Positions 1 to 27,494 of a stretch of 35,195 nt of DNA are shown here, one piece after another; positions within the stretch are counted from its first letter, which is position 1, and each line of letters opens with the position of its first letter. The position numbers and the translations under genes are program-made. Source of the stretch: an uncultured delta proteobacterium (GTDB taxonomy: Bacteria; Desulfobacterota; WTBG01; CAIYCZ01); the NCBI GenBank assembly GCA_963803975.1, contig CAWDOY010000024.1, forward strand, positions 1-35,195. Reading direction: 5' to 3'. A model generated the notes under the pieces. The model was not told the DNA's origin, ran no database searches, and saw only the letters and a list, made by a program, of their open reading frames with translations.

Positions 1-1
1 T

Positions 2-6564: not shown

Positions 6565-6567
6565 TTG

Positions 6568-8596: not shown

Positions 8597-8727
8597 GGCA
8601 TTATGAAAACGGATGCCCGGGTTATTTGGATAACTACAATTTATACCACAGAAGCGCGCGTTCAGTAATGCTAATTTTAGCGCGAGAGGGATAGGGAGAG
8701 CGCAAGCAGGGAGGGGCAAAGAAAGTA

Positions 8728-8763
8728 ACGGGTGCCGGGCGTTACACAATGCCGGGCACCCGT
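8728..8763 (-). terminator. Probable intrinsic terminator
   Basis: ACGGGTGCCGGGCGTT / AATGCCGGGCACCCGT hairpin followed on the minus strand by a T-rich tract, just after the stop at 8777. Confidence 0.55.
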
Positions 8764-8776
8764 GCTGCAAGCGCTC

Positions 8777-10545: not shown

Positions 10546-10577
10546 GGTACAATGCCTGCAGTGGAGAGACAAAATAA

Positions 10578-10617
10578 AATGTGGAAACCCGCGGCCGCTG
10601 CCGGAAGTTTCCACATT
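10578..10617 (-). terminator. Probable intrinsic terminator ending the tetR operon
   Basis: AATGTGGAAAC...GTTTCCACATT inverted repeat followed on the minus strand by TTATTTT. Confidence 0.55.
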
Positions 10618-10653
10618 GCCGTGAACTATTGTTTCAGAACGGGCCTTAGATGC

Positions 10654-11451
10654 TTACTCAAGTCCGAACATGACGGTGCGGATGTACTCCTGCTGTTTCT
10701 CCGGGCCGAGCAGCTTTTTAAAGACATCGACCGCGGGCCCGCCTTTTTCCAGGAGTGTTGTGACATAGAGTTCAAATCCCTGCCGGACTTTCCTGCTCTG
10801 TTCGGCATCGAGCTTCTGCGCGTTCTTTGTCATTTCGATGTAGGCGTCAAGATACCCCTGAAATATGGCAAGCAGCTTAGCATCATCTTCAGCTTTTGCA
10901 TTGGCATGGATACTGACATCGGCAACAAAGTCCTTGTACCAGTCACGAACCCCGACCGGCGCGAAACCCTTCAGCTCAGCTGAAAGCTTTCTCATCTTGT
11001 CATAGCAGGCCTTCTTGTTGGCGTCATCAATGCGGGCAGGATCAATCAACTCCATGACGTATACCCGCTTGCCGCCCGGGATCGCGATGATATCGACAGA
11101 GAGCATGGGCAGGTTGTAATCATAGGCGGGCCTGAGCAGCAGCGTGTACATCCTGATGCAGAGAAACATGGTGGCGTCAATATTATTGATGCGCGCCAGG
11201 CGGTCAGACTGCTGGCTGTCCACCATGAACTGAAACATCTTAAGCGCCTTCCAGGGAGCGATGTATTGAAATTCTGCCTTGATCGGGTAGGGCTGCAGCG
11301 GAAAATTTTTCGCCAGCGCCTCGCGCGCATAGCTGTCGTAGCGCGCATACATGCGATCACCCTCTCTTCTCATAACCGAGGCGATGATCAGAGCCGCTAT
11401 GACCAGCAGCACGATGATGATGCCGAGATATTTAAGTATCTTTAAGAACAT
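10654..11451 (-). CDS. FDBR/RCCR-like (ferredoxin-dependent bilin reductase fold) protein with an N-terminal membrane anchor
   Basis: RPAYDYNLPMLSVDII...KRVYVMEL resembles the FDBR P-x-Y-D/N-L-P-x-F/L-G-x-D strand. The C-terminus Y...GGPAVDVFKKLLGPEKQQEYIRTVMF resembles the FDBR (D)P...FG...Y/F...LF tail. Residues 9-26 are hydrophobic. Confidence 0.65.
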   Translation of the reverse strand: MFLKILKYLGIIIVLLVIAALIIASVMRREGDRMYARYDSYAREALAKNFPLQPYPIKAEFQYIAPWKALKMFQFMVDSQQSDRLARINNIDATMFLCIRMYTLLLRPAYDYNLPMLSVDIIAIPGGKRVYVMELIDPARIDDANKKACYDKMRKLSAELKGFAPVGVRDWYKDFVADVSIHANAKAEDDAKLLAIFQGYLDAYIEMTKNAQKLDAEQSRKVRQGFELYVTTLLEKGGPAVDVFKKLLGPEKQQEYIRTVMFGLE

Positions 11452-11502
11452 GAAAGTACCCCTCGCTGCTTTTTAGACGCTCTGTATATGCAGTGCAGGC
11501 GC

Positions 11503-12592
11503 TTATTTCGCGTCTTCAATCTTCCTGCCGTCCGCCCAAAGGAGCTTTTCCGCTTTTGCTACATCCTCTTCTGCACCCTTTCTGACTTCAGGCTTGTCAT
11601 AGCTGCGGAACGAGATGTGAACATGGCCCGGATCGTCAGGCATCGTGGCCGGCACGATGTGCAGCGTCAGTTCCTTCCCGCCGTAGTTCTTTACTGCATG
11701 ATAGTAGATGTTAAAGAAGGTCCGGCGCTGCTCCTTCAGCGTCAGGCCGTTTTCCTTGGCCCACTGCTGCAGCAGCTTCTCTGCGGTCTCAAGATTGCCC
11801 CGAATACGTGAGCGGGTGAACAGTATCCGGTCAGTGCTTTTGTGCTCGGTATAGTGGCGGGGCTTGTATTTAAGCTTGCTCGGATCGGTAAGGGATGCCG
11901 GCTGCAGCGAGGTCCAGTACCCGCGGTATTTTGCCAGATCAGTGCGCGCCGGCAGGTTCAGCATCTTCTGCCGTACCTCGTTGCCAAATACCTCAACCCG
12001 CTCCGGCACCAGCGATTCCCAGATATCAAGACCACTCCAGGCCGCTCCTTCCTTGGCCAGCTTTTCCAGCAGCCAGATCTGAAACGCATCAAATCCCTGC
12101 AGCACCGGCATGACCTGCCTGCCGCCGAATCCGCCGATGACAACCGGCTTCACGTTGGGGAATTTCTCCTGGATCTCAACCAGATAGTTGCGTGCCGCCG
12201 ATAAGGTGCGGCGTACCCCCGGCACTTTCAGCACCATGGTCTCGTCCCAGTCACCCTGGAGAAGAAAATACGCGACCTTTTTCTGGGCAAGCTCATTCTG
12301 ATAGACCTCCACAAACTTGTAGATCCGTGGGCGACGGCTTTTCATTCTTGGAATAGCTGCCGATGATGACATAGTCATAGGGCTTTACCGTTATTACCTG
12401 GTCAAGCTTTTTTACATCAAGCTGCTGCTGATCATCGCCGATGATGGCCCTGAGCCAGTAGGCCACTTCAGGGGTTGAGCCATAGATTGAATCATACACC
12501 AGAAGCCCCTTGAGCGGAGCAGCACTGGCCAGTGCCGGCAGCATCAGAAGCATTAGTACGGCGACTCCAATCAGATTTATTCTTCGCTTCAT
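11503..12592 (-). CDS. Secreted flavodoxin-domain (HemG/Flavodoxin_5-like) protein with an unknown C-terminal domain (frameshift near 12330)
   Basis: Signal peptide ending ALASA-AP. LLVYDSIYGST FMN phosphate loop, YDYVIIGS, KKVAYF, FGGR. Joins ORFs 12293..12616 and 11503..12378. Confidence 0.7.
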
Positions 12593-12697
12593 AACATCCT
12601 CCTTGTAAATGAACACAGGTTTAAAGATTTAAAATCCTATATACCGCAAAATATAGAGGACACAAAGGATTTTATTTGGGTCCTCTACGGCGATCTT

Positions 12698-14062
12698 TTA
12701 TATGGTGAAGCTGCAGTCGTAGCCGGCGCGGATGGTGTTTTTCAGCATCACCTTGGTGGGCAGGGTGGCAAAGCCTTCAAGCTTTTTCAGCAGCTCCGGC
12801 CGCTCAGCCTGAATGGCCGGAATGACTTTCGCCATGGCGCTGCCCATGTGCTTCGGCACTTCATAGGGATCAAGCAGGGTGGGCAGGGTTTCCTTGATTT
12901 TGCTGAATATATAATCAATCTCGCTGTCAGTGCACAGAATAGGCATGGCAAGGTTCTTGAGGAAGACCGTATAGTCAAGGGTATCCAGATGATAGGTCTT
13001 CCACCAGTCGAGATACGGCTGTATGCCCTCCTCATTGCGGAGCCCTTCCTGGAGAGCATAGCTCACGGTATTCCCGGCCTTCCAGCCGCACATCACCGCG
13101 CCGCTCATCTCTGCTTCCTGGCACCAGCCTGCATCGCCGGCAAAGATAACATTATCCTTGAACGGATGGACGATGGGGCCGTACATGTTGCCGCACACGC
13201 CGAGTTTGCGGATTTTTTTTGCCTTCTTGAACCAGGGGGCAAACCGGCTTTTGCTGATGAAATGTTCACAGAGCGCTTCATGATCGTTGGGCGGATTGGT
13301 ATCAGATACCATTACCAGCCAGAGGTCCTCACCATTGTGCTTCCAGGCCCTGGGGATGATGAAGCCGAGCATGGGGGGATCACCGCTCTGGACCAGAGGC
13401 TGAATCAGCGCGTAGGGACTGGGGAGATCCAAATCAGTCATCTCGTAGGCCCATGAGGCACACGTGCCGTAGAAGCCGCGGTTCTTGTTCATGCCCAGAA
13501 GCCGTGCGGTCCGAGAGACGCGACCGTCTGCTGCTATGACAAAAGGGGCTTTAATGCTGAGGCCTTCTGCGGTATACACCCATACCCAGTCGCCGGTTTT
13601 GCGCACATCCACCACATTGGCGCTGGTGAAAATTTTCACGCCCAGCCTCTGGCACTCTTCAACCATGCTGCGCAGAAAATAGCCCTTGTCATAAACCGCT
13701 GTGGCTCTTCCGGCTTTTCCCTTCTGGACGTTGGTCGAATAATCTCCGAACTTGATTTTTTCTCCTCCGGGAGAGAATATCTCCCAGGAATAGAAGTCTT
13801 TTGCCGGGCCGTCATATTTTACGCTGAAGCCGTGATGGGGGAATGAGAAGAGCTTCTGCTCCTCATTGTATATAAGCCGCTCGCCCATATAATTTCCCGA
13901 CAGCGTCACCAGCATCATGCCGCACATGCGCAGCACGTCATGAATAACCTCCTTGCGCTCCAGCAGCGCGACAGAAAGGCCGTTTTCTGCGGCAAATTTC
14001 GCGGCAGTAAGCCCTGCCGGGCCGGCACCTATTACGATGAGATCATATCCGCTTTTCACCAT
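12698..14062 (-). CDS. FAD-dependent oxidoreductase, geranylgeranyl reductase/FixC-like family
   Basis: YDLIVIGAGPAG, a CG motif after ERK, IAADGRVS and FAGDAG. Confidence 0.85.
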   Translation of the reverse strand: MVKSGYDLIVIGAGPAGLTAAKFAAENGLSVALLERKEVIHDVLRMCGMMLVTLSGNYMGERLIYNEEQKLFSFPHHGFSVKYDGPAKDFYSWEIFSPGGEKIKFGDYSTNVQKGKAGRATAVYDKGYFLRSMVEECQRLGVKIFTSANVVDVRKTGDWVWVYTAEGLSIKAPFVIAADGRVSRTARLLGMNKNRGFYGTCASWAYEMTDLDLPSPYALIQPLVQSGDPPMLGFIIPRAWKHNGEDLWLVMVSDTNPPNDHEALCEHFISKSRFAPWFKKAKKIRKLGVCGNMYGPIVHPFKDNVIFAGDAGWCQEAEMSGAVMCGWKAGNTVSYALQEGLRNEEGIQPYLDWWKTYHLDTLDYTVFLKNLAMPILCTDSEIDYIFSKIKETLPTLLDPYEVPKHMGSAMAKVIPAIQAERPELLKKLEGFATLPTKVMLKNTIRAGYDCSFTI

Positions 14063-14101
14063 TTATCCTCCTGCTGTTAATAATTTTATACTTACGTGTT
14101 A

Positions 14102-14755
14102 TCAGTCCCCGCCGGTCTGGCCGGTACCCGGTGGCTTGACGGCAGAGCCGTCATTTTTCAACAATAAACCTTCAAGGCATAGATTGAGGCGCTCATAGAG
14201 ATCATCAGAAGATAGTTTGCTGAGCCGTTTCACCAGGCAGTCTATGACAAACAGGTTGAAGATGCCCTCAAGCAAGGTGGCAAGCCTCATGGCCGGGACA
14301 TCCCTGCGTATTTGGCCCTGTTCCTGCCCCTGCTCCAGAAGACGTTCCAGAAACGTGCGGAACTCCTCGAAAAAGATCCGGTCATACGTCTGATTGAGAG
14401 AAGCGACATTATTAATAAGCAGCGCTCTGCTGATATTTTCATTTTTAGCGGCAAGCTGGGCGGTGGAGTGGAAAATGTCATGGATTTTTATTTTTATGGA
14501 AGCAGAAGAATTAAGAATCTCATGCCACCTTTTCTTGAGGGTGGGCAGCTTTTTATGGAACATCTCCGGGATAATATCTTCTTTGCGCGGGAAATAATTA
14601 AAGAAGGTGCTCTGGGCAATATTGATACGCCGGGTGATGTCCTCAACCGCGGTATTCTCAAAGCCCTTTTCAGCAAAAAGCTTCTGTGCGGTCTTTAAAA
14701 TGGCATCGCGCGTGGTTTTCTTTTTTTGTTCTCTCAGTTGTGATATTTTCTTCAC
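14102..14755 (-). CDS. TetR/AcrR-family transcriptional regulator
   Basis: REQKKKTTRDAILKTAQKLFAEKGFENTAVEDITRRINIAQSTFFNYFPRKED HTH. Likely start is GTG 14755, because the longer ORF runs through a REP-like element. Confidence 0.93.
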   Translation of the reverse strand: MKKISQLREQKKKTTRDAILKTAQKLFAEKGFENTAVEDITRRINIAQSTFFNYFPRKEDIIPEMFHKKLPTLKKRWHEILNSSASIKIKIHDIFHSTAQLAAKNENISRALLINNVASLNQTYDRIFFEEFRTFLERLLEQGQEQGQIRRDVPAMRLATLLEGIFNLFVIDCLVKRLSKLSSDDLYERLNLCLEGLLLKNDGSAVKPPGTGQTGGD

Positions 14756-14822
14756 CGGATATCTCGATGCAGCAGAACTTTTGATATATAATATAAATCC
14801 AAGCAAATATATTTGAAATTTT

Positions 14823-14873
14823 TGTAGGAGCGCATTTATGCGCGATGGTTTCGCGGCTAAAGCCACTCCTACA
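14823..14873. repeat. GTAG-type REP doublet (REPIN-like palindrome)
   Basis: TGTAGGAGCGCATTTATGCGCGA...TCGCGGCTAAAGCCACTCCTACA: two inverted GTAG-capped mini-hairpins. Confidence 0.7.
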
Positions 14874-15069
14874 ACAAAATCCCATGTCTATTAATAGTTA
14901 CCATTGGGTCCGGCTTGTCCGGGTTAGGGATTCCCCTATAGATTAAACAGGGATACCCTGACTTGACAGTATGGTGATGCACCTGATACTTAACAGAGTA
15001 TAACTATTGTATTGGCTATGGTGCCTGGTACTGGTATAGTTTAAATTAGTTAGCGCGCACAAAATTATC

Positions 15070-15121
15070 TTGACATAAATGAGTAAACTCATTAATAATG
15101 CAAATAACAAACATATGTCAA
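15070..15121. promoter_or_regulatory. Overlapping divergent sigma70-like promoters with palindromic operator AATGAGTAAACTCATT (15078-15093)
   Basis: TTGACA at 15070 (+) and TTGACA at 15121-15116 (-), each with an AT-rich -10-like box 17-18 nt away. 16-bp palindrome with a central mismatch. Confidence 0.7.
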
Positions 15122-15685
15122 GTTAATTTTTCCTCTTGCGCTGCGTTAAAAACGCGCTAAACACGCTGTCCCAAAGGCCCGTCCCCAAAGAGCCTGTTTC
15201 CAGGCAGCAGTCAATCAAAACGCACCTGACGCGGGGAATAGTTACCCGATGGCACCGGTAGGAACCTCAACCATACAGGGCTGGATCAGCTGTAATGCCC
15301 CGGCTCCTGACGTATCCACAGTACCCGGCACGGGGAGGCGAGACCTTCCCCCGCTCATACATAAAGCTGCGCACAGCACCTCTCTATCTATTGCCCCGGT
15401 TACGCAGCACTGCACAATGCCCCCAGCGCCCGCACCACGCGGCACTTTACCCGGCTCAAAAAAAACAGTAATTGACAAAATATACTCAGCGTGTAAAAAT
15501 TTGGCAATTTTTCAAACAGCTTGCCGAACTGCCTGCATAGTCTGCCCGGAACACCTGGTAAACAACAGGAGATGCAATACTATGATGAGTTGCTCGTACT
15601 ACTGTAATTCCGCGTAAATGAAAGACGCGTGGGAAATATAATCTACGGTAAGAGGATGACCATAAAAACATTAAGGGGTGAAGAC

Positions 15686-16774
15686 ATGAGAAAATCATTT
15701 TACGTCTGTGTGGCAATAACAGCACTAATACTGGCTGCTGGTTTCGGGACCGGCTGTAAAACAGGAGAAAAATTCAGGCACCGAAGATACCATCGATAAC
15801 ACCGGAAAATGTGACGGCGATTATGGCCCCGGATGAAAACAACCTGTGGCTAATAGGGAATTACGGCATAATCTTCCATTCAAGTGACGGCGGTAAAAAC
15901 TGGGCAAGTCAGGATTCAGGGATAAAAACTCTTCTCACGGATGGTATGTTTCTTGACAATAAAAATGGCTGGGTGGTGGGCATTGATGGCGTCATAATAC
16001 ATACCGGGGACGGCGGCACTACCTGGGTAAAACAGAATTCAGGCACAACCAAACATCTCATGAACATCACCTTTACTGATAAAGACTATGGATGGGCAGT
16101 AGGAGAATTTTCAACCGTTGTTCATACCGCTGATGGCGGTAAAACCTGGGCTCCCCAGCAGCCTGAGGCTGATAAGATTTATAACGATGTCTGTTTTCTT
16201 GACCGGCAGAATGGATTTATTGTCGGAGAATCCGGTGTTATGGTTCCGTACCATTGATGGGGGTGCTCATTGGGTTCCGATTATGCCCAAAGCCTTTGAA
16301 CGCAAAGATTTGGAAGACGAATATGAACGGCCCCGGCCATCGCTTTTCTGTATAATCTTTAAAGATAAAGTAAACGGATGGGCGTGCGGCAACTTTGGAG
16401 CGATACTGCGCACCACGGATGGAGGAATCTCCTGGGATGTGCTTCCCAGTCCAAGCCTTTTGGCTCTCTACACGATATGCATAAAGGATGGGAAAGGATG
16501 GTGCGTGGGAGATAAGGGGACCTACATGACATCACAGGACGGCGGCTTGACCTGGAAAAACGAAGAGGAAACCATCAAAACAAAAATGTGGTTTCGCGAT
16601 GTTGTTTTTACGACCCCTGATAAAGGCTGGATTGCAGGAGCGGGCGGTACCGTAATCAGTACAACGGATGGAGGGAAAACATGGGAATTTCACTCCGGCC
16701 TGTCTTATGACACCAAAGCCTTTAAATTCTTTGATGACATACTGGCTAAGTTTGAAAAAATGATGTCGGAATAA
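15686..16774 (+). CDS. YCF48/BNR repeat beta-propeller lipoprotein, paralog B (frameshifts near 15775 and 16250)
   Basis: ATG 15686 gives MRKSFYVCVAITALILAAGFGTGC, a lipoprotein-like signal. ORFs 15811..16257 and 16118..16774 carry many S/T-x-DGG-x-T/S/N-W repeats. Confidence 0.82.
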
Positions 16775-16793
16775 TTGAGATAATTAATAATAA

Positions 16794-16855
16794 GGATTGC
16801 GTCGTCGTTTCACTCCTCGCAATGACAGCAGGGGACTTTTTACGACTTTGTCAAG
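16794..16855. mobile_element. Right half of a MITE/REP-like palindromic element
   Basis: GGATTGCGTCGTCGTTTCACTCCTCGCAATGAC followed by the terminal repeat GACTTTTTACGACTTTGTCAAG. Inverted counterpart at 19363-19402. Confidence 0.6.
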
Positions 16856-16914
16856 ATTGGTCAAGAAAGCGTCTCTGATATTTGTCAAAGAAATTTAGAA
16901 AGGAAGATAATAAC

Positions 16915-19309
16915 ATGGGTAAAATAGAAACATTCATGGAGCGCGTTGCGAATCATGTCATAGAGAAGCGCAACATCTACCTTATCCTCGCCATCATCAT
17001 CACCGTCTTTTTCGGCTGGCAGTGCCGGAAGCTGTCGGTTAAGACCATATTTGCCGACCTGCTGCCGCAGCAGCACCCGTACATAAAGCTGCATAATGAG
17101 ATCCGCAACAAGTTCGGCGGTGCCAACCAGGTGCTTATCATGGTGGGGGTAAAAGCTACCGGCAAATACAAGGATGTATTTAATACCGAAACGCTGAAGA
17201 AAGTAAAATCCATAACAAATGATCTCCTGCTGTTTCATGCTGTTGACCGCTTTAAGATATTCTCTCTGGCAAGCTCGAAAGTTAAAGATTTCAAAGCCAC
17301 TCCTCAGGGATATGTATCTCTCTCGGTGATGTATCCAGAAGTTCCCACCACAGAAGAAGGTCTCAAAAAACTGAAGCTCACGGTCTATGGCAGTCCCGTC
17401 TGCTACCCGGGGTTAGTGTCTCTTGACAGCGCCAAGACGTTAGTCCAGGTTGACTTTTTTGAAGAGCAGATGGATTACAAAATCACCTACAAAGAGCTGA
17501 TGGATTTGCGGAAGAAATATGAAGATGATAATCACTTTGTTGCCATAGCCGGCAATCCCATGCACATCGGCTACATTGAAAGCTATGTGCCGCAGGCATT
17601 GAAGATTTTTGTCTACACCATTATCGCCATGCTGGTGATGTTTTTTCTGTTTTTCCGCACCAGGCGCGGTATGGTGATGCCGGTTTTTGCAGCGCTGATC
17701 AGCGCGGTGTGGGGCCTGGGGTTCCTGGCCATGCTCAACTTCAACCTTGACCCGCTGGTGCTGGTGTTCCCGTTTCTGATCGGGGCGATGGCTGCATCGC
17801 ACTCGGTGCAGGTGGTGAAGCGCTACCGGGAAGAGTCCATAACCCTTGGCAATGGCAAGGCAGCCTGCAAGAAAGTTATTACCAGCCTGTTCGTCCCGGG
17901 CATTGCAGGAATTATAACCGATGCCTCGGGCATTCTGATTATCGCCATTACGCCGATCGATATCCTGTATAAGATAACCATATCCTGCGCGTTCTGGGCC
18001 TTCGGCACAATATTTATCGCGTTTTTTCTGCTGCCCATCATCTTTTCCTATTTCCCAGTGCAGACAACACCGGAAAAGGAGGGGTTCCTGGACAGGATGC
18101 TGCATGGCATTGGTCATTTTATCTGCCGGAAAGGAAAAATCCCCATTCTGGTCATTGTATTGATTGTCTCCATCTGGGGCTACTTCCAGCAGCTGAAGCT
18201 GCCGGTAGGGAATGTGGTGCCGGGGTCTGAAATCCTGTGGCCGTTTCACCGCTACAACGTGGATGCGTTCCGGCTTATCTTTAATATGCCGCTTTTGAAC
18301 CCCATGTACATAGTGTGCGAGGCTGACAAACCCTATGCTCAGAGCAACCCGGCACTTGTACGTGAAATAATAAAATTCGGGCGCTATATGTCACGAACCC
18401 CCAATCAGCGGGTTGTTTTTGTGGGAAGCCTTAACGGACCGATCCCGAATTTTAACCGGGCAATAAGAGATACTGACCCCAAATGGATATTTCCTGCCAC
18501 CGTTAATGATCAGCTCAAAATGTTATGGCAGGTTGTCTATTCTACCGGATCTCCCGGGGACTGGGATAAGTATATTAGCGCGGATTCAAAAGACGCTAAT
18601 ATAGTTTTGTTCCTGCGTGACAAGACAGCGGACAGCCTCAGAGAAGTTATTGACCGGGTGAATAAATTTGTTAAAGAGGAATCTCTGGCCGGCACACCGA
18701 TAAAAGCGAAGCTCAATACTGACGAGGAGATAACCTTCACCTTCAAGTACCGGCTGGCCGGCGGCACCGCGGGAGTTCAGGCAGGTATCAATGAGACGCT
18801 GGTGAAATACAATGGCATGACGACAATCATTGCCTATATCATGTGCTTTTTGCTTTGTTGCGTTCTTCTTCCAGTCCTTTGTGGCGGCGATCTTTATCAC
18901 TCTGCCGCTGCTGACCTCGACCTTTCTGACCCAGGCGTTCATGACCCTCATGAACCCGCCGATCCCCTTAACCACGGCAACCCTGCCGATAGCATCAGTG
19001 GGCATGGGGCTTGGTGTTGACTATTCGATCTATATTGTCGGCCGTATTATTGAGGAATACCGGGATAACAAACGTGACCTGTATGACGCGATTGCAATAT
19101 CGCTGGGAACGTCCGGGAAAGCGGTTCTGTATGTCGGCTTAACCCTTATCTGCGGCCTGGGATTCTGGGCGATATCAAAACTGATGTTCCAGGCTTTGAT
19201 GGGGTTGCTGCTGGCAATCGTGCTGGTAATTAACATGCTGGGAGCGGTTTTTGTCGTACCCAGTTTTATAGCTCTGTTTAAACCAAAATTTATAACGTCT
19301 AAACGATAG
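16915..19309 (+). CDS. MMPL/RND-family transporter, paralog B (frameshift near 18865)
   Basis: ORFs 16882..19020 and 18830..19309. LDPLVLVFPFLI, IITDA, GMGLGVDYSIY motifs. AAGGA precedes ATG 16915. Confidence 0.88.
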
Positions 19310-19362
19310 CACGCTATGTGCGGTACCATACTGATTAAACTGCGTGAGGGAAAGAAAGGAGG

Positions 19363-19698
19363 CTTGACAAAGTCTTAAAAAGTCACCTGCGGTCATTGCG
19401 AGCATCTGACCCCGGCGCTGCGCTTCGGGGTTGTTCATGAAAGAAACAAGTCTCGGAAGACCCCTCTTACATCCCCCCTTGGCAAGGGGGGAAACAGGGG
19501 GGTGTCATTGCATGCATGAACCACCTGCACAATGTTTTTGAATTGTGCATGAACGGAAGTTTCTTAGGAGGAGCGACGCGGCAATCTCGCTTTTTCAAAC
19601 ACTTACAAAGGTAGATGCTTCACTTTCCCTTCGCTATGCTCTGTGTTACAGTTCACCGCAATGACAGTTTTTTATGACTTTTTTACGAGAGCATCAAA
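19363..19698. mobile_element. Non-autonomous MITE-like element with nested palindromic repeats
   Basis: Ends CTTGACAAAGTCTTAAAAAGTC / GACTTTTTTACGAGAGCATCAA, inner GTCATTGCG / CGCAATGAC, internal hairpin CCCCCCTTG-G-CAAGGGGGG. No transposase. Confidence 0.6.
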
Positions 19699-19855
19699 GA
19701 TTTAAAATATTTTAGTTGCAAAAACAATTTGACTGGTATAAGTAAATTTAAAAAACAGAGAAGCGGCAGGTGCGGACACAATTTCTGGTACTGGTTAAAC
19801 AGGGGTAAAACAGAACGTATTTGAAAATCTATTAATCTAAACAAGGGAGGGCTTG

Positions 19856-21430
19856 ATGAAACGCAAAATTCTATTCCTATCAGCGATCATTCTGGCATTT
19901 ATAGTAAGCGCGACAGGGTTACGGCAGGCTCTGGCTGAGGTGCGTTTTTTAGACGACAAGATTATTGTCAATGGAACAATTAAGCAGACGATGTACTATC
20001 GCACCCAGATGAACAGTGCTGAATACAAGACGTACCACAAGACCCGCATGGACTACAACCGTTTCAGCGCTCTCATTGAAGGGCAGTTCAAAATCAAGGA
20101 TTGTCCCGAGGAGCAGATAAACTTTATCGGCGGCTTTAAATACTGGTATGAGCTGGCACCGGTCTATGATCCTAAGATGCGCAATGGCATCAGCCCCGCA
20201 GTCCCCTCATTACAGAGAAACTGGTACTCTCGACCCCAGGACCGCGACCTGATTTCAGAGGCATATATAGATTACATACGCGGGCCGTGGAATATCCGGT
20301 TCGGGCAGCAGATTGCGGTCTGGGGTGAGACCGACATCAAGCGGACCGTTGACATCATTAACCCCATTGACGTCAGGCTCGGCTCTCCGGGTGTGGATGC
20401 CTGGGAAGAGATAAAGATGGCCTTGTTTATGCTGCGCGGCACCTACCAGAGCCAGCTTCCCGGCAACCTGCTGTTCGAAGCCCTCTACATCCCCGGAGAT
20501 TTCAGGCCAGCGCGGCTGCCGGTGGAAGGTACCCATTACGGCCCCAATCCAGTTATAAATAAAAACGGATTTTATCCCTACCTGCCCTATGGCGTAACTA
20601 CCTGGCAGTTTGAAAAGGCGCGCATGGACGCGCCAGGCTGGAACCTGAAGAATTATGAATACGGACTGCGCGTACGCGGCTTTACCTGGAACATTGACTG
20701 GACATTTCTTTATTATAACGGGCTGTATGACGCCCCGATTGCCATAGCTGATACACTGATCCCCTCTTTCACATCAGATTATATTCTCAAGGGTGTAGTA
20801 GGCTCCATCACCAAAAAGCCGCAGAAACCCACGTTCCCGGATGAAAAGTGTTTTAAGTACCCGCGCTACAGTATGATCGGCGGAACGGCCCAGACGGTAG
20901 TGCCCGCACTGCATGACTCGGTATGGCGCCTGGAATGGTTTTATAACCATAATGAACCCTATAACCGTGGGACTAACGCTGACAACGCCGCCATATACGA
21001 CTCGGTAAAACGTGACTGCTTAGGCATGGGCCTCAACTATGGTGATAAATTCACCATGCCCTGGACACACAAGTACTGTCAGGATAAAATGATGGATGTG
21101 AGCCTCACGTTCTTTTACGAGAGGGTGTTGCACTGGGATGATGATATTATTATTGCCGAGAGCGGCCGGGGGCACCGCCGCGGCGCAGCCCACTCTTCAG
21201 AGGTCGCCTGGAACGTGCAGCAGTTCTTCTTTAACCAGACAGTCATGTTAATGTTCACCGGAAGCTACAACCCCATTGGAAAATATTTCTTATGCCCGAT
21301 TATAGCTTATGTTCCGGGAAACCACTGGCGCGGGGAGCTTGGCTTCCCCACCTACGGATCCCGAACACCGTCCAACAAGGGCCTGCATGACAAAGACAGC
21401 ATCCTGATCCGCGCGCGCTACGAGTTTTAA
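19856..21430 (+). CDS. DUF1302-like outer-membrane beta-barrel protein, paralog B
   Basis: GGGAGG RBS, signal peptide, RFGQQIAVWGETD...DIINPID motif, C-terminal RYEF. Confidence 0.8.
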   Translation: MKRKILFLSAIILAFIVSATGLRQALAEVRFLDDKIIVNGTIKQTMYYRTQMNSAEYKTYHKTRMDYNRFSALIEGQFKIKDCPEEQINFIGGFKYWYELAPVYDPKMRNGISPAVPSLQRNWYSRPQDRDLISEAYIDYIRGPWNIRFGQQIAVWGETDIKRTVDIINPIDVRLGSPGVDAWEEIKMALFMLRGTYQSQLPGNLLFEALYIPGDFRPARLPVEGTHYGPNPVINKNGFYPYLPYGVTTWQFEKARMDAPGWNLKNYEYGLRVRGFTWNIDWTFLYYNGLYDAPIAIADTLIPSFTSDYILKGVVGSITKKPQKPTFPDEKCFKYPRYSMIGGTAQTVVPALHDSVWRLEWFYNHNEPYNRGTNADNAAIYDSVKRDCLGMGLNYGDKFTMPWTHKYCQDKMMDVSLTFFYERVLHWDDDIIIAESGRGHRRGAAHSSEVAWNVQQFFFNQTVMLMFTGSYNPIGKYFLCPIIAYVPGNHWRGELGFPTYGSRTPSNKGLHDKDSILIRARYEF

Positions 21431-21499
21431 GAGCTGACAGCTTTTAAAAGTAACTATTTAATAAATTTTTTGCAAACAATAAAGTGAAGGAGGTTATAC

Positions 21500-22813
21500 A
21501 TGAGTTTACGACGGTTTCAAACAAATGTACCAATGCTCTGCCTGCCACTGATTGTTCTTGCGCTACTTTTTGCGGCTCCGGTTATGGTCTGTGCGGAACA
21601 GCTTAACTTTCCTCTTGCCGCTTTTAGTGATGAGGAACTGGCAAAGGTGCGCGACTGGGAAAAGACCTGGGCGGGCAAAAAAATTGATCAGAGCAATGTT
21701 GACCAGATTAAGGAATTTTTACCAGAATCTTATGCCGGCGTTTATAAAAAGCCTGAGGTATGGAATGAGCCCAAGGGGTTCTGGTTTACCATCCTTCCCT
21801 ATAAGCGCTACGTAGAAACGAAAGGGATGATTGAGGCTACTAACAAGTATCATACTCAGGTGAAAGCTGATGCCCAGGGTATTATTCAGAATTATGGCGA
21901 AACAGCCGGCATGCCGTTTCCCAATCCGGATTTATCAGATCCCATGAAGGGTGGGCAGCAGCTTGCCTGGAATTATGATTTCAATACCCACGGTGATGCC
22001 TATCACTGGCTCAGAACCGGCCCGGCACTGGAAGTTAAGCAGAGGACTGAACGGGTTTCCAGTCAGGACATGACCGAGCTTTATTTCGTGAGCCGTGTGG
22101 ATGTTGACCCCAAGCCGAACCTTCTTGCCAGCAACCCCAAGGGCATGCGCCGGGGCTATTTCATTCATCTGTACAAGCCGCCCGAGTTCGTTAACACCCG
22201 CATGTTCAACATTCGCTATCTGGATTACAGCAAGAGTGATGACGGCTATATGTGGTACAGCCAGTTCAGGAGAATACGCAGAATTTCAACAGCGCAAAGA
22301 ACAGACTCAATTGACGGTTCAGACCTCATCTATGATGACGAATACTTATGGGACGGCGCAATCCCCAGAAATACGTATAAGTATATCGGCAAAAAAGACC
22401 TGCTGTGCAGCCGCCAGCAGGATCTTAAAATATTGCAAAGGGTGTCCGGCCAGGGCATGCCCAACGGCATCACCAGGGAACGGCTGAACACGATAGTTGT
22501 TGAAGTCGTGAGCAAAGATAAAAACTACATCTACGGGAAGCGGGTGTGGTATCTTGACCCGGAAAGCTATTATATCCAGTGGACCGAAATATATGATAAC
22601 CTGGGCAGGTTCTGGAAATGTTTTGAGAACTGGACCAATCAGTTCCCGCTGGAATCAACCGGCGAGATGAAAAAAGTGATTGTCGGAACTGAGTTCATGG
22701 ATTTTCAGCGGACTCATTGCGGCATCAGTTTTCAGGAATGCAAGGGTGTCGGCCTGACACGAGTTGACCAGAACATGTTCACCATCAATAACCTGCAGAA
22801 GGGCGGTTACTAA
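21500..22813 (+). CDS. DUF1329-like periplasmic protein, paralog B
   Basis: Signal peptide; GMPFP, DDGYMWYSQFRRIRR, YIYGKRVWYLD, IYDNLGRFWK motifs typical of this family; standard position after DUF1302. Confidence 0.85.
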   Translation: MSLRRFQTNVPMLCLPLIVLALLFAAPVMVCAEQLNFPLAAFSDEELAKVRDWEKTWAGKKIDQSNVDQIKEFLPESYAGVYKKPEVWNEPKGFWFTILPYKRYVETKGMIEATNKYHTQVKADAQGIIQNYGETAGMPFPNPDLSDPMKGGQQLAWNYDFNTHGDAYHWLRTGPALEVKQRTERVSSQDMTELYFVSRVDVDPKPNLLASNPKGMRRGYFIHLYKPPEFVNTRMFNIRYLDYSKSDDGYMWYSQFRRIRRISTAQRTDSIDGSDLIYDDEYLWDGAIPRNTYKYIGKKDLLCSRQQDLKILQRVSGQGMPNGITRERLNTIVVEVVSKDKNYIYGKRVWYLDPESYYIQWTEIYDNLGRFWKCFENWTNQFPLESTGEMKKVIVGTEFMDFQRTHCGISFQECKGVGLTRVDQNMFTINNLQKGGY

Positions 22814-22838
22814 TAACTGCCAGTTAACGGAAGAAGAT

Positions 22839-22870
22839 AAAAGCCTGCCTCATGTGAGGCAGGCTTTTTT
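22839..22870 (+). terminator. Intrinsic terminator
   Basis: AAAAGCCTGCCTCA-TG-TGAGGCAGGCTTTTTT. Confidence 0.9.
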
Positions 22871-22906
22871 GTCGCTTGCGACGCGCAGCAAAAACAATAA
22901 AATTCC

Positions 22907-22950
22907 TTGACATAAATCCTGCGATTTAGTTATATATGAGCGCACTCATA
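22907..22950 (+). promoter_or_regulatory. Sigma70-like promoter with palindromic operator TATGAGCGCACTCATA (22935-22950)
   Basis: TTGACA at 22907 and a TATATA-like -10 near 22931. The operator has the same ATGAG-N4-CTCAT form as the one at 15079. Confidence 0.72.
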
Positions 22951-23101
22951 ACCGGCGGACTGCGCCATCATCCTGATACGTTGGTATAGGTATAAAATTC
23001 TGTATGTGGTTTAAAACGCAATCCCAACCCACCCATAGCACTCTGCATTTTGAAACAATAAATCCTGATAGTATAAAACACCAATCACAAGGAGGACCTG
23101 C

Positions 23102-23872
23102 ATGCTAAGGGCTATTACTATTGCTATCCTGGGAAATTTATATTTTATCGTATCGCTGGCCATATTCCTGCCATTCCGCATGAAACCCGTCGAGAACTAT
23201 AACCTGTTTGCTTTTCCCATCATGGCTGCTATTTTCCTCGGCCTCTTATATAAGGCATGCACGGTCGAGAAAGAGAGCAAGGGCTATCTGTATGCGTTTT
23301 TCGCGGGCATTGTGATGTGGCAGGTTGTCGGTGAAATACCCTATATCAAAGTACCTGCGGGAAAAATACTGCAGTTCAGCGACCTGAATATAAAAATGCT
23401 CGGAGGATACTACTATATGCTGGCGGGATGGGTGCTGCTGCATATTCTGGTGCGAAGCGGGGCGTTAAAGCGGCAGGTCGCATTCTGCTTTGCAATCTTT
23501 CTCGGCATCTGGACCTTTGAGCTGTACATGGATAACTATTCTTTCAGAGTGCCGCTGGAAGTCATGCCCATGGTCGCAACGGTCATCATGTGGGTGGCCC
23601 TGATAGTGAGCATTGTGCTTCTCATTATGGCCAGGAAGGCAGCAACGGTCGAGCGCAAGACCGTGATAGGCGGTATTTTATACCTGACCCTTTCTATTAT
23701 ACTGATGTCATCAGGGCAGTGGAAAAAGCCTGCTGACTTCTATCTCAAGTATGAAAGCACTGCTTTAGTTGACGAGGCAAAAGACGTGCAGGAAGAAATA
23801 CAGTATGTCGAACACCTCAAAACACGGATGGGGATACAGTCTTATACGACTCCCAATCCATGGATAAAGTAA
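23102..23872 (+). CDS. Hypothetical polytopic membrane protein
   Basis: AGGAGG RBS and about 7 hydrophobic segments; no family recognised. Confidence 0.75.
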   Translation: MLRAITIAILGNLYFIVSLAIFLPFRMKPVENYNLFAFPIMAAIFLGLLYKACTVEKESKGYLYAFFAGIVMWQVVGEIPYIKVPAGKILQFSDLNIKMLGGYYYMLAGWVLLHILVRSGALKRQVAFCFAIFLGIWTFELYMDNYSFRVPLEVMPMVATVIMWVALIVSIVLLIMARKAATVERKTVIGGILYLTLSIILMSSGQWKKPADFYLKYESTALVDEAKDVQEEIQYVEHLKTRMGIQSYTTPNPWIK

Positions 23873-23936
23873 TCATAGCGGTTAGGAACAGAAACTTATA
23901 TATTTGATTTTGCATCCAATAACCGGAGGAAAGTGT

Positions 23937-24587
23937 ATGGCAGAAAATTACACAACACCGCTTGCCCGCGCGGCGAGAATAATGGAAATTGTTATCCCCT
24001 GCTATATGTTCGGCAAGGCCTGGGGGATAGCTGACGCGAAGACGGTTGATCTGTTCCGCGCCATGTTTCCCTCGTTTTTAATCGATATAGCGGAATTTTT
24101 TAAGAGAATAATGCAGACGGACAACGCTAATATCCAGAGATTTTTTTCTACGATGTCAGGTGCCATCGTCGGTTTCGTTGTTGTAGCGCTGCTGGCGCTG
24201 GTCATGCATTTGGTACTGCGGGACAGAAAATATATTAATTCCCTGCGGTTTACCGCAGTTTCTTTGATACCGATAGCGGTCCTGAACGGCACGCTCTCTC
24301 ATGCGATAAAAACCCTGGTGGAAAATATGGGCACGCAGACTGCTGACGCGCTGTATGCAAGCACGGTGAGCAGCTCCCAGGGCAATATCCTGATAGACGG
24401 CACCTTTTACCTGACGGCCATGTGGATGATGGGACGGAGAACCGGGGTCAGCAAGGGAAGGCGTTACGGCGTGGTTGGTGTGGGCATCGGCTTTATGGTG
24501 ATCTATATGGCATTGGGCCTGATGATTTCTCCCGCTGAGTGGCAGGCGCTTCTGCCCAAACTGCAACAGGCTCTTGCCAATCACTAA
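23937..24587 (+). CDS. Hypothetical membrane protein
   Basis: GGAGG before ATG 23937 and about 4-5 hydrophobic segments; no family recognised. Confidence 0.72.
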   Translation: MAENYTTPLARAARIMEIVIPCYMFGKAWGIADAKTVDLFRAMFPSFLIDIAEFFKRIMQTDNANIQRFFSTMSGAIVGFVVVALLALVMHLVLRDRKYINSLRFTAVSLIPIAVLNGTLSHAIKTLVENMGTQTADALYASTVSSSQGNILIDGTFYLTAMWMMGRRTGVSKGRRYGVVGVGIGFMVIYMALGLMISPAEWQALLPKLQQALANH

Positions 24588-24601
24588 AAGGAGGACTGAC
24601 C

Positions 24602-25711
24602 ATGACCATCACAAAACAGCGTTTTGTAACTATAAATAAATATGCGCTCTGGGCGGCGATATTCGTGTACCTGTATGGCCTGTTTGGGACCAAGATTATG
24701 CAGCCGGGAATATTTTTCGCACTTGCGGCGGGATTTTTCAACCTGCTGCACCAGAAGTATTTCAATGCGCGGCCGCGTCTTGCAGCGCATGTGTGGCTGA
24801 TTCCGGCAGTGATTGGTGCATTCACCTATCCAATGCTCATGGAGAAGCAGCCGAGCGGGCAGAACACATTTTATTTCATGCTGACCTTCATCATCAGCAT
24901 AATACCGTATCTGCTGCTGGTTTTCGGCAGCACCGAGGAGCAGCCGCCCAAAAAGGAGCGCCTCAAGGTAATCAGCTTCCGCATTTTTGCGCAGATAACG
25001 GTTTTCATGATCTACGCGGTGTTCACCGCTTATTCGTTCATCTATGGGTCAAATGTAGCTCTTTTTTTCTGGGGCATGTTTCATGTGTTGACTGTTGCCA
25101 TTTTGCCGTTTCTTTTCGGCAGGGTGCTCTGCGGCTGGCTCTGCCCCAATGCGACGCTGCAGGACGGCCTGTTTAAGAACATGACCTATACGCGCCCCAT
25201 TCCGAAGCTGCCCAAGGCAATTGAAGAGCAGAGCCACAGTACCGCCATGTATCTGAGCGGCGAGGTTGATAAGAATGCGCCGTATTTCCCGTTCACGCTG
25301 CTTCTTTCATGGTTCCCCATGTTTTTCTGCGAGACGGTCTTTGACCTGACCGGTGACCTCTGGTATCCCATATACTTCATGTATGGTCTTTTTATCGGCT
25401 CGTTGCTGCTTCCCTGGAGAAAGATGTGCACCCATTTCTGCTGGCTGTCATCGTACCGCGGGATTGCCGCGCACGGCAGCTTGTGGCGCATTCGCTATAA
25501 CAAATCAAAATGCAAGCAATGTAAAGTTTGCCAGGCAGAAAAAGCCTGCCCGTTCTATATTGACATCTGCGCCCAGGACAATGAAATGCCGGCAACCTGC
25601 TGCCTCTGCTTCAGCTGCATGGAAGCATGCCCGTTTGAGGGGGTCATAACGTTTAAGAGAGATCCGGAGGAAAAAGCGCGGATCAAGGCGCTGGGGAAGA
25701 AGGCCGCATAA
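24602..25711 (+). CDS. Membrane 4Fe-4S binding protein (NapH/MauN/RdxA-like)
   Basis: AGGAGG before ATG 24602. Many TM helices; GRVLCGWLCP, CTHFCW, CKQCKVCQAEKACP and CCLCFSCMEACP motifs. Confidence 0.85.
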   Translation: MTITKQRFVTINKYALWAAIFVYLYGLFGTKIMQPGIFFALAAGFFNLLHQKYFNARPRLAAHVWLIPAVIGAFTYPMLMEKQPSGQNTFYFMLTFIISIIPYLLLVFGSTEEQPPKKERLKVISFRIFAQITVFMIYAVFTAYSFIYGSNVALFFWGMFHVLTVAILPFLFGRVLCGWLCPNATLQDGLFKNMTYTRPIPKLPKAIEEQSHSTAMYLSGEVDKNAPYFPFTLLLSWFPMFFCETVFDLTGDLWYPIYFMYGLFIGSLLLPWRKMCTHFCWLSSYRGIAAHGSLWRIRYNKSKCKQCKVCQAEKACPFYIDICAQDNEMPATCCLCFSCMEACPFEGVITFKRDPEEKARIKALGKKAA

Positions 25712-25774
25712 CCTGCGCAACACCGTGCAGTATACATAGTGTGAAGTTTAAACCTGTCGCATGGAGGGGAGTCT

Positions 25775-26473
25775 ATGGGAAGCCTCAAAGATATTCACAC
25801 GCTTGCCCTGGCTGAGATAAAAAAGAGATTTTCTCTCAACCCGGTCCGGCTCAAATATCCGTTTCCGGAACGTTCAAAAAGAACGCTGGGCCTGGTAAAA
25901 GTAGACGGTCAGGTCTACAGCTCTGAACAGTTTTCCCGCGTGGTGTTTATGAAAATAGACTTGCCGTTCTATCTTTCAGTGCGCTCCACATTTCTGCGTC
26001 CCCGCATTGAACTTGATTTGCCGGTGTTCACCGGGGAGGTCGTCATCACCGGTAAGAAGCGCATGGTTATGGTGGATATTCACCGGGCCGGCGACGATGG
26101 GCAGCATGACGATAACGCGCTGTTCGACCGGATGATACAAATACGGGACCGGTATCCAGCCCTGCTAAAGAAGTCGGGTGCTGTCCAGGGAGAAATTCAG
26201 AGCGTTTTTTCAAGGGCAGCTGTTCAGTCGCGCATTACCGAAGCACAGGATGATGATGCGCGCGGCATCTTTCGCGAGTATCTCAATGTCTTTCTTGACC
26301 TGACCCAGAAATCAACGCCCCTCACCGGCGGATCGCTTGAACGGGCAAACAATGGTTTTGAGAAATATCTAAAGACCGTCGTCGACCACGACCCGGGCGT
26401 AAAGGGCTATAAGGTTCTGTTCGGCAAGGAAAGCGGTGTGACCCGCGCTCTGGATATCTTCTTTGACCGTTAA
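25775..26473 (+). CDS. Soluble FDBR/RCCR-like protein, paralog of 10654..11451
   Basis: FLRPRIELDLPVFTGEVV...KRMVMVDI and FEKYLKTVVDHDPGVKGYKVLFGKE...DIFF align by eye with the first copy and with FDBR motifs. Confidence 0.65.
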   Translation: MGSLKDIHTLALAEIKKRFSLNPVRLKYPFPERSKRTLGLVKVDGQVYSSEQFSRVVFMKIDLPFYLSVRSTFLRPRIELDLPVFTGEVVITGKKRMVMVDIHRAGDDGQHDDNALFDRMIQIRDRYPALLKKSGAVQGEIQSVFSRAAVQSRITEAQDDDARGIFREYLNVFLDLTQKSTPLTGGSLERANNGFEKYLKTVVDHDPGVKGYKVLFGKESGVTRALDIFFDR

Positions 26474-26494: not shown

Positions 26495-26529
26495 AAAAAA
26501 ACCCTGCAGAATCTCTGTAGGGTTTTTAT
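26495..26529. terminator. Bidirectional intrinsic terminator
   Basis: AAAAAAACCCTGCAGA-ATC-TCTGTAGGGTTTTTAT between convergent genes. Confidence 0.85.
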
Positions 26530-26552: not shown

Positions 26553-27134
26553 TCATTTCTGCTTCTTTAATGCAGCCCCCAGTTTTCTGCCTGCATCTTC
26601 TGCCCGTTTCATAACTTCCGGCATATCTACAACATCATTCATCCCCACCGGTTCAGCCAATGCTGCAACGATCTTCATTTTATGACAGTAATCAAGAAAT
26701 ACCTTGAGCGTTTCAATGGTCCGCTCATGACCTGCGCCCGCGACGGTGGTTATCGCGACCGCCGGTTTCCCGGTAAATGGCCGTTTTCCCAGCACCTCGA
26801 TTTCCGCATCCGGGCCGATACCCCGGTAGTAGAGGGCCATGTTACGGTCGATGAAGCATTTCACCGCGCCTGAGACATCCAGGAAGTAGGTGGGTGCGCC
26901 GACAATCAGGGCATCAGCCTGCAGCAGCTTTTCATATATCTCCTGCATGGCATCCTGAATGATGCATATACCGTCATTCATCATACAGTTAGCACAGCCG
27001 GTACACGGCTTGATTTCATTCCGGGCAAGATATATGAGCTCATATTCACACCCGGATGCCTCGGCAACTTTCTTTACCAGCTTGTTGGTATTGCTTTCAT
27101 CGCGATAACTGCCGCAAATACCCAGTACTTTCAT
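26553..27134 (-). CDS. Iron-sulfur flavoprotein (Isf)/NADPH-dependent FMN reductase family
   Basis: GICGSYR..SNT FMN loop, CTGCANCMMNDGIC (CX2CX2CX6C), ADALIVGAPTYF...KCFIDR. Confidence 0.9.
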   Translation of the reverse strand: MKVLGICGSYRDESNTNKLVKKVAEASGCEYELIYLARNEIKPCTGCANCMMNDGICIIQDAMQEIYEKLLQADALIVGAPTYFLDVSGAVKCFIDRNMALYYRGIGPDAEIEVLGKRPFTGKPAVAITTVAGAGHERTIETLKVFLDYCHKMKIVAALAEPVGMNDVVDMPEVMKRAEDAGRKLGAALKKQK

Positions 27135-27451: not shown

Positions 27452-27494
27452 TTATGACGCTGGTTAAAAATTCTCCTCATGGAGTTTGTTCAAC

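Follow-up and report, generated by a model that had tools for sequence, protein, structure and literature searches.

The stretch of DNA analyzed here (the window; 35,195 nt, contig CAWDOY010000024.1) belongs to the genome of an uncultured delta proteobacterium of the Desulfobacterota (G000, 98% complete; C-numbers denote its contigs) and carries a gene block with, at either end, a gene for a protein with the predicted fold of ferredoxin-dependent bilin reductases (FDBRs), F1 and F2. F1 follows genes for a TetR-family regulator, an FAD-dependent oxidoreductase, and a flavodoxin-domain protein, F2 follows genes for two membrane proteins (M1 and M2) and a membrane polyferredoxin, and the genes in between encode a four-part envelope transporter of the YCF48, MMPL, DUF1302, and DUF1329 families (Table 1). 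Gene order and families agree with a preliminary description made from the letters of the window. This description also let both operons end in the FDBR-like gene and a terminator. Hairpins with U tails do follow F1 and F2, but a CAAX-protease gene and a third FDBR-like gene (F3) lie downstream of F1. The hairpins of F1 and F2 come from folding z-scores; a simple terminator scan reported only the one behind the DUF1329 gene. The block is real and conserved, and from the aldehyde:ferredoxin oxidoreductase (AOR) gene beyond F2 to the CAAX gene beyond F1 the order is the same in G003, a relative from a genus other than the host's.

Both F1 and F2 exceed the gathering cut-off of PF05996 (31 bits) with 70.9 and 63.6 bits, respectively, and share 25% identity. 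Their predicted models (F1, pLDDT 93.7, 85-row alignment; F2, pLDDT 89.8, 78-row alignment) form an alpha/beta/alpha sandwich. The top Foldseek match was HY2 (6kmd; E 7.7e-14, TM 0.80) for F2 and PcyA/PebB (E 3.7e-12, TM 0.73) for F1. With both models, HY2, PebB, PcyA, and PebA came first, PebS and RCCR next, and HemF last. Listed matches at E<1e-5 were exclusively FDBR-family or RCCR entries, and among the listed matches no solved structure other than FDBR, RCCR, or HemF appeared. The FDBR-like character proposed for both end genes thus passed the fold check. RCCR is not the closest relative, as it occupies ranks 26-27 and lower and a PF06405 search gave no match. Judged by these models, F1 and F2 possess the FDBR fold but fit no named FDBR family.

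F2 Glu88, at the position of PcyA Asp105 and GtPEBB Asp99, is Glu in 75 and Asp in three of the 78 alignment rows, and Asp206, at the position of GtPEBB Asp219, is Asp in all of them. In F1, the first position is held by Asp120 (Asp in 85/85 rows). PcyA His88 corresponds to Thr103 in F1 and Ser71 in F2. The available text of PMC6755814 states that GtPEBB requires both Asp99 and Asp219, and PebA only the first Asp. F3 is more divergent: it gave no match in the Pfam scan but reached an hhalign probability of 97% against the paralog alignment, with Asp at both acid positions; its frame is broken near 9370 and intact (about 300 aa) in a second copy on C36. In a midpoint-rooted tree of 31 rows, in which HY2, RCCR, PebS, and pre-PcyA sequences are missing and long branches meet, the FDBR paralogs fall into several branches whose depth equals that of the PebA/PebB/PcyA splits, with an unresolved base; F2 groups with the Ca. 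Schekmanbacteria protein P0115 (58% identity, support 99/95). A profile search of protein cluster representatives returned 1229 proteins at E<=0.001, and one FDBR paralog had no match in a phage collection.

F1 orthologs start with a hydrophobic helix and most orthologs of the flavodoxin with a signal-like N-terminus, both read by eye (exceptions for the latter are L120, L127, and the second one in L132). Since its neighbors, the flavodoxin and F3, look exported, F1 probably faces the periplasm. The flavodoxin was assigned on the intact G003 ortholog (PF12724, Flavodoxin_5, 39.4 bits; cut-off 27); no NCBIfam model, HemG or other, matched at 1e-5. Complex prediction for the G003 F1 with its flavodoxin and FMN scored 0.01 (mark 0.32) and was used neither for nor against a pairing of the two. 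The FAD enzyme had been called GGR-like. TIGR02032 is indeed its best family match, but with 71.6 of the required 158.8 bits it is no member, and the BchP model TIGR02023 gave 29.1 of 343.3 bits.

To follow the partners of F1 and F2, we considered 35 regions with F1-like matches from relatives, G003 not among them, and 52 mapped loci of 54 found for F2. The flavodoxin gene directly precedes F1 in 22 of the 35 regions, stands elsewhere in four, and is missing from nine; the FAD-enzyme gene heads the group in 18, and YCF48-MMPL genes are present in 13. The link between the flavodoxin and F1 is conserved. A membrane 4Fe-4S gene lies directly upstream of F2 in 4/52 loci, and in four others M1, M2, the 4Fe-4S protein, and the FMN reductase are encoded by a separate operon converging on F2. 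In 12 loci, an alpha/beta hydrolase gene stands no more than two genes ahead of F2 (45 of 121 neighboring open reading frames (ORFs) scanned, 45 loci), and beyond the host's family F2 more often follows such a gene than a 4Fe-4S gene. The earlier claim that each FDBR-like gene follows a redox carrier consequently survives for F1 and fails for F2; gene order across relatives backs a dedicated donor for F1 only, and we dropped the membrane 4Fe-4S protein as a general donor of F2. The F2-adjacent hydrolase was likewise rejected as a pheophytinase, its matches being of the generic epoxide-hydrolase type.

The palindrome ATGAG-N4-CTCAT occurs exactly at 15079 and 22936. A minus-strand TTGACA (15121-15116) points at tetR and lies 23 nt before the first site, and a plus-strand TTGACA (22907-22912) points at M1 and lies 23 nt before the second. 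Counts alone are not above chance: with up to one mismatch the window has three sites (1.3 expected; 16 of 100 shuffles as high), and the genome has eight exact ones (about 5.7 expected). We accept the palindrome as real because of its spacing and conservation, not its number. At all eight tetR loci, including the window, a site with at most one mismatch lies within 500 nt before tetR and 23 nt after TTGAC, whereas all nine orthologous FAD-enzyme loci without an adjacent tetR lack it (one has a two-mismatch match at -498). Before M1, the site is present in G000, G001, and G003; in G002, where a contig ends, it follows the DUF1329 gene with identical spacing, and five M1 loci of the sister family, one with just 116 nt of upstream DNA, show no site at up to one mismatch. 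The shared palindrome at the TTGACA promoters of both operons, noticed before, is thereby upheld. It is very likely the operator of TetR, and the gene block is likely governed by one repressor. Operator 1 also falls in the spacer of another promoter, the one that scores highest in this region (15070-15099, 11/12) and is directed at YCF48/MMPL, so that the transporter probably belongs to the regulon. The layout of two operons bracketing the transporter cluster holds, but the cluster is probably not merely bracketed.

A matrix scan of G000 yielded 19 matches at a score of at least 13.5. The top eight are the two window sites, their copies on C36, and four further AT-rich sites; distant sites are included in Table 1. 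With a stricter pattern, five relatives had 4-12 matches per genome on both strands, compared to 0-4 for a reversed control. Among the relatives' loci inspected (13/17), the FAD_binding_4 site recurred in G001, G002, and G036, the CCG site in G003, and the CoA site in G001; the AOR-associated site was not among them, and other loci have the look of chance matches. Weak matches within genes (G000 scores of about 13.5-15.6; e.g., L169 and L173) were taken as chance, except for C1:140719, which has a counterpart in G003 leading to another FDBR gene.

The lineage census covered 40 relatives for PF05996 and 41 genomes for most other markers. G000 contains 22 PF05996 matches, some of them duplicates or pieces, and at least 13 distinct full-length FDBR-fold paralogs with about 20% identity and varied acid residues; the number of matches is 6-18 in 30 of the 40 relatives. 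Of 301 genomes drawn evenly from the phylum, nine exceeded the cut-off, all from the host order, and none of the 292 outside it did; one other match was weak. GGR-like FAD enzymes reach 3-24 matches per genome in 32/41 genomes. The expansion of FDBR-fold and GGR-like genes is restricted to the class. The gene dsrA was not found in G000 and is present in 5/41 genomes, all in two families without FDBR or GGR-like matches, and because it is confined to these families the FDBR-bearing members are probably not sulfate reducers. The window had been described as free of haem oxygenase genes, and this extends to G000 and all 41 genomes (PF01126, a search that was positive in 3 of 14 control genomes). 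None of 21 genomes had a type-II reaction center (type I was not searched for). Sequencing runs containing window DNA carry freshwater or sediment labels (14 studies).

Beyond the FDBR genes, G000 encodes a broad set of proteins whose best matches handle tetrapyrroles. We found three DPOR/COR-like N+B pairs (below cut-off; best models BchB/BchZ), an HCAR-family protein (E 8.5e-76; 259 bits versus 63 for the next match), five ferrochelatase-family matches, and a HemF-like gene beside a transporter, which together with FDBR make five unrelated folds of this kind in one genome. A gene with BchE as best model stands beside two FDBR genes, and corrinoid methyltransferase genes stand beside two further ones. 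About 10 copies of the four-part transporter are present, several next to tetrapyrrole-type enzymes. AOR and FAD_binding_4 are among the largest families (34 and 32 ORFs or pieces). G000 also has acetyl-CoA synthase and only one enoyl-CoA hydratase, which suggests little beta-oxidation; Mg-chelatase/CobN was not found.

Several of these loci deserve a separate description. L052 (C3:158000-176000) and L051 (C50) combine DPOR/COR-like pairs with chelatase-like genes and a GGR-like paralog, and the C50 set includes its own iron protein and adjoins a transporter cluster. On C26 (L152:10154-12127), an SDR gene precedes the HCAR/BciB-family gene, which we take to be the enzyme pair of the plant chlorophyll cycle. 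L046 (C3:45000-65000) holds genes for a UbiD decarboxylase, an AOR, two carotenoid-ketolase-like flavoproteins, an SDR, a transporter, a TetR, and two FAD_binding_4 proteins; speculatively, this set would fit a sequence of methyl group, aldehyde, acid, and decarboxylation on pyrrole fragments. In L044 (12331-15276, C42), an Old Yellow Enzyme (OYE) gene with bilirubin reductase (BilR) as best model (357 bits, cut-off 750; BaiCD 351) and an NAD(P)-binding_10 gene head a transporter cluster whose last gene is an FDBR gene. Large signal-peptide proteins with a chelatase-like N-terminal motif (by eye) are encoded by L158:8015-9652 and its paralogs on C43, C29, and C26; this family has no Pfam or strong NCBIfam match.

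We propose, with a probability of roughly 60%, that the block helps the cell to take up external tetrapyrroles derived from chlorophyll or haem and to break them down without oxygen. It is one module among many in the toolkit of a lineage that likely lives by oxygen-free breakdown of such pigments. The DPOR-, HCAR-, ferrochelatase-, HemF-, and BchE-like genes, together with the single enoyl-CoA hydratase, strengthen the tetrapyrrole reading, and catabolism for carbon and energy is favored over a pure electron sink because operator sites precede oxidative and CoA-activating operons. Feeding on tetrapyrroles appears simplest because in this non-phototroph the five folds occur in many copies, some of them exported, and in connection with transporters, and because the block shares its repressor site with oxidative and CoA-activating genes. 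The pathway suggested in the preliminary description has therefore gained in its tetrapyrrole theme, genome-wide, and lost in two respects, namely as a possible electron sink and as a single pathway.

In the mechanism that we envisage, TetR would sit on the transcription start until a ligand derived from the pigment releases it. The DUF1302/DUF1329/YCF48/MMPL set would carry the hydrophobic substrate across the envelope, F1, with the flavodoxin as electron carrier, would reduce it through one-electron steps coupled to protonation, and cytoplasmic F2 would perform a second, differently placed reduction. The FAD enzyme might saturate a side-chain or ring double bond, and the distant operons would oxidize side chains to acids, with energy kept via CoA thioesters. 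The sediment could supply open-chain substrates (phyllobilins of plants, phycobilins of algae, bilins of animals); alternatively, the ring might be opened without oxygen by an undescribed reaction that follows DPOR-like reduction. A wider scenario is tentative, with the odds somewhat against it: several families of one Desulfobacterota class would be specialist anaerobic chlorophyll and bilin eaters that de-esterify and demetallate pigments in the envelope, break aromaticity by ATP-driven DPOR-like reductases (presumably an equivalent of benzoyl-CoA reductase for tetrapyrroles), act on the opened chains through at least a dozen FDBR-fold enzymes that differ in regiospecificity, and ferment the resulting pyrrole fragments; their FDBR diversity may be the reservoir from which phototrophs drew their bilin reductases.

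A number of observations weigh against pigment breakdown as the role of the block. F1 has Gly-Gly-Pro where FDBRs have Asp-Pro and thus misses the second Asp (Gly at the Asp219 position), both proteins lack an equivalent of PebB Arg215 (Val202 in F2), and several FDBR paralogs of G000 have no acid at the first catalytic position. Identity of F1 and F2 to PebA, PebB, and PcyA is only about 20-25%, and all NCBIfam cut-offs were missed (PebB/HY2 best, 53 bits versus 263-327 needed). No ring-opening enzyme was identified in G000, where HutW-type candidates stay below cut-off (212/400 bits) and were discarded. The HCAR-like gene is present in only 14/41 genomes, albeit all FDBR-positive, and in G016 (same order, 95% complete) the FDBR search gave no match, although 15 GGR-like matches and PCP_red proteins are present. 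DUF1329, which we had tried as a lifestyle marker and rejected, is present in 40/41 relatives, FDBR-negative ones included. The presence of hemA in G000 makes a biosynthetic role possible, and AmeABCD, the best-studied of the homologous transporters, is taken as an exporter in the available text of PMC6394551. Finally, the relatives compared are all metagenome-assembled, and kin genomes are not independent samples.

In a rival reading, the cell only reduces the pigments, as an electron sink or for detoxification, and re-exports them while taking its carbon from elsewhere, comparable to gut bilirubin reduction. Most toolkit enzymes are relatives of reductases, an exported flavodoxin and an anchored F1 suit reduction outside the cytoplasm, export would match the role ascribed to AmeABCD, the lack of a dsrA match makes another electron sink plausible, and bilQ-bilR-bilS follows the same logic of regulator, reductase, and flavodoxin (available part of PMC10769871). 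We nevertheless regard reduction alone as unlikely, given the operator-like sites before FAD/CCG dehydrogenase, AOR, and CoA-transferase/ligase genes, the size of the AOR and FAD_binding_4 families, and acetyl-CoA synthase as an alternative sink. It seems improbable, too, that the genes serve to build an unknown cofactor or pigment of the tetrapyrrole type out of endogenous precursors and to export it, although relatives of FDBR, DPOR, chelatase, HemF, BchE, and GGR are biosynthetic elsewhere, hemA is present, and MMPL proteins often export lipids. A mixed diet would explain the 13 or more divergent FDBR paralogs and the 3-24 GGR-like matches per genome better than a single product, operator-like sites precede CoA-activating genes, Mg-chelatase was not found in G000, and many parts look exported.

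The folds might instead be re-used for other hydrophobic substrates such as steroids, terpenoids, quinones, or N-heterocycles, which would make the tetrapyrrole theme accidental. The transporter type has been linked to fatty esters and monoterpenes (bioRxiv 2020.07.04.188060 and PMC6394551, in their available parts), GGR-like, OYE-like, and hydrolase neighbors are generic, and carotenoid-ketolase-like and tocopherol-cyclase-like genes accompany other G000 transporter clusters. Five unrelated tetrapyrrole-type folds in one genome, a single enoyl-CoA hydratase, and listed Foldseek structures confined to FDBR, RCCR, and HemF lead us to give this explanation little credence. Far less probable still is that the window copy is a decaying duplicate with real frameshifts. 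Four block genes (flavodoxin, YCF48, MMPL, and F3) are frame-broken, the flavodoxin near 12330, and a near-copy of almost the whole window lies on C36 (22702-64844) at 84-96% identity; however, every broken gene is intact in G003 or on C36, and the frames of F1, F2, the FAD enzyme, and TetR are intact in the window. Comparison of the two copies gave 112 frame-breaking indels, of which only 15 fall in base runs of at least four; the indels are scattered and differ in place between the copies, as in error-prone long-read assembly, so that assembly error is the likely cause. The near-copies reflect strain mixture or segmental duplication and inflate gene counts; further near-copy contig pairs are C4/C31, C39/C40, and C40/C41.

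Returning to the proposed role in pigment breakdown, we compared the system with known ones. With the FDBRs PebB/HY2, PebA, PcyA, and PebS (PDB 6kmd, 6qx6, 2g18, 2x9o, 2vck), F1 and F2 have the predicted fold, the length, and the acid on the central strand in common, and F2 also the C-terminal Asp-Pro loop. Unlike them, F1 and F2 form deep branches of their own, with many paralogs per genome and no haem oxygenase found, and the membrane anchor and flavodoxin neighbor of F1, its altered Asp-Pro motif, the lipoprotein signal of F3, and the Glu in place of the first Asp in F2 set the three proteins apart. RCCR has the same fold as the F1 and F2 models (TM 0.60-0.74) but ranks below the FDBRs. It acts in catabolism on a chlorophyll-derived bilin, in the plant PAO/phyllobilin route that opens the ring with oxygen, and its Glu/Asp acid pair presumably resembles that of F2. 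The ChuW/HutW route serves iron uptake; G000 has no HutW over the cut-off. Together with ChuY, these enzymes degrade haem without oxygen, as stated in the available text of PMC10151467.

The same text describes pre-PcyA enzymes as active and present in non-phototrophs, mostly with haem oxygenase and globins; pre-3 has, like F1, Thr at His88 and Asp at 105, whereas the typical cluster partners (haem oxygenase, globin, and V4R genes) have no counterpart in the window. Its pre-PcyA tree places Ca. Schekmanbacteria sequences in the outgroup, and since F2 groups with P0115, the F2 family may have been glimpsed there; PMC10151467 was the only paper that turned up on Schekmanbacteria and FDBRs. The nearest logical parallel is the gut bilirubin reductase operon bilQ-bilR-bilS, in which, according to the available part of PMC10769871, BilR belongs to the Old Yellow Enzymes and BilQ to the MarR regulators. 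It likewise joins a regulator, a reductase, and a flavodoxin-like protein in anaerobic bilin reduction, but here the fold is that of FDBRs, the regulator is a TetR, and transporter and oxidative operons are added. AmeABCD of Castellaniella and the DUF1302-DUF1329-BNR-RND genes of Pseudomonas represent the same four-part envelope system as in the window. They are tied to monoterpenes or fatty esters with a debated direction of transport, and the Pseudomonas genes are needed on fatty esters in the accessible part of bioRxiv 2020.07.04.188060. The block is not described in the literature searched, nor did the search, which most subscription papers lay outside, reveal a gene set or organism for oxygen-free chlorophyll or bilin breakdown. 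The novelty lies in the system, as the single enzymes are variants of known folds. Our additions are the test of the operator against tetR presence, the regulon members at distant loci, the finding that the expansion is confined to the class, the contrast in dsrA, and the lack of general support for the proposed F2 donor.

Chlorophylls and bilins enter anoxic sediments in bulk and are altered there. If the wider scenario is true, specialist anaerobic pigment eaters would fill a gap in what is understood of how chlorophyll is turned over in such sediments. Our results also extend the FDBR family, so far associated with pigment synthesis that needs oxygen, to exported and anchored forms without haem oxygenase, with a bearing on the origins of bilin reductases and on the reading of sedimentary pigments. 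Named genes, a predicted operator, and a repressor expected to bind the substrate or an intermediate as its ligand make this a directly testable question, and F2 is a small soluble enzyme suited to coloured substrates.

Table 1. Features of the window and distant operator-like sites in G000.
Feature	Position	Strand	Basis or remark
F3: third, divergent FDBR-like gene, lipoprotein-type N-terminus	8777..9672	-	in-genome profile match, hhalign
CAAX/Rce1-like intramembrane protease	9850..10545	-	PF02517; 3' of F1 also in G001, G003
Hairpin with U tail, terminator-like, 3' of F1	10560..10653	-	z -2.4
F1: FDBR-fold protein, one N-terminal membrane helix (residues 8-26)	10654..11451	-	Pfam, model, alignment
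Flavodoxin-domain protein, signal peptide, C-terminal domain without assignment	11503..12592	-	PF12724 via G003 ortholog
FAD-dependent oxidoreductase, GGR/FixC/halogenase superfamily	12698..14062	-	21 matches in G000
TetR-family regulator (ORF limits; real start probably GTG near 14755)	14102..14866	-	PF00440
Predicted operator 1, ATGAGTAAACTCAT, 15079-15092, between two opposed TTGACA hexamers	15070..15121	.	
YCF48/BNR beta-propeller protein	15686..16774	+	Pfam; two frameshifts, intact in G003
MMPL/RND-type inner-membrane transporter	16915..19309	+	frameshift near 18846 within T run; intact in G003
DUF1302 protein, predicted outer-membrane protein in available part of PMC6394551	19856..21430	+	Pfam
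DUF1329/LolA-like periplasmic protein	21500..22813	+	Pfam
Strong terminator hairpin closing transport operon	22839..22868	.	z -5.0
Predicted operator 2, ATGAGCGCACTCAT, 22936-22949, 23 nt after TTGACA	22907..22949	+	
M1: polytopic membrane protein, no known family	23102..23872	+	7 related ORFs or pieces in G000
M2: membrane protein, no known family	23937..24587	+	scans
Membrane polyferredoxin (Fer4_5; CGWLCP and CTHFCW motifs, Cys-rich C-terminus)	24602..25711	+	Pfam
F2: soluble FDBR-fold protein, acid pair Glu88/Asp206	25775..26473	+	Pfam, model, alignment
Terminator hairpin between F2 and convergent FMN-reductase gene	26496..26527	.	z -3.7
Flavodoxin-like FMN reductase	26553..27134	-	usual operon partner of M1-M2-4Fe-4S in sister family
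Distant site before FAD_binding_4 dehydrogenase genes	C36:7679		matrix scan
Distant site before CCG-FAD pair	C30:8671		matrix scan
Distant site before CoA-transferase/acyl-CoA ligase/ADP-forming ligase cluster	C14:175073		matrix scan
Distant site before aldehyde:ferredoxin oxidoreductase	C39:59541		matrix scan

The remaining parts of the window surround this block. A paralog of the polyferredoxin has NapH/MauN as best model. A membrane-fused spermidine-synthase-like gene and the AOR gene follow the block (27486-31773); the AOR gene is also found there in G001, G002, and G003, and the spermidine-synthase-like gene at least in G001 and G003. Further on, a minus-strand gene (32380-33303) encodes a YscW-family lipoprotein domain (PF09619); the window ORFs scanned include no genes for type III secretion. 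At the other end, a second YCF48/MMPL/DUF1302/DUF1329 cluster (1-5750, minus strand), also frame-broken, is preceded by a LuxR-type two-component pair (5879-8770) whose CHASE4-PAS-HisKA_3 sensor is split in two. The gap between the MMPL and DUF1302 genes of the block contains a non-coding element of about 200 bases (19364-19579) that recurs at 96-99% identity on C3, C9, C30, and C36.

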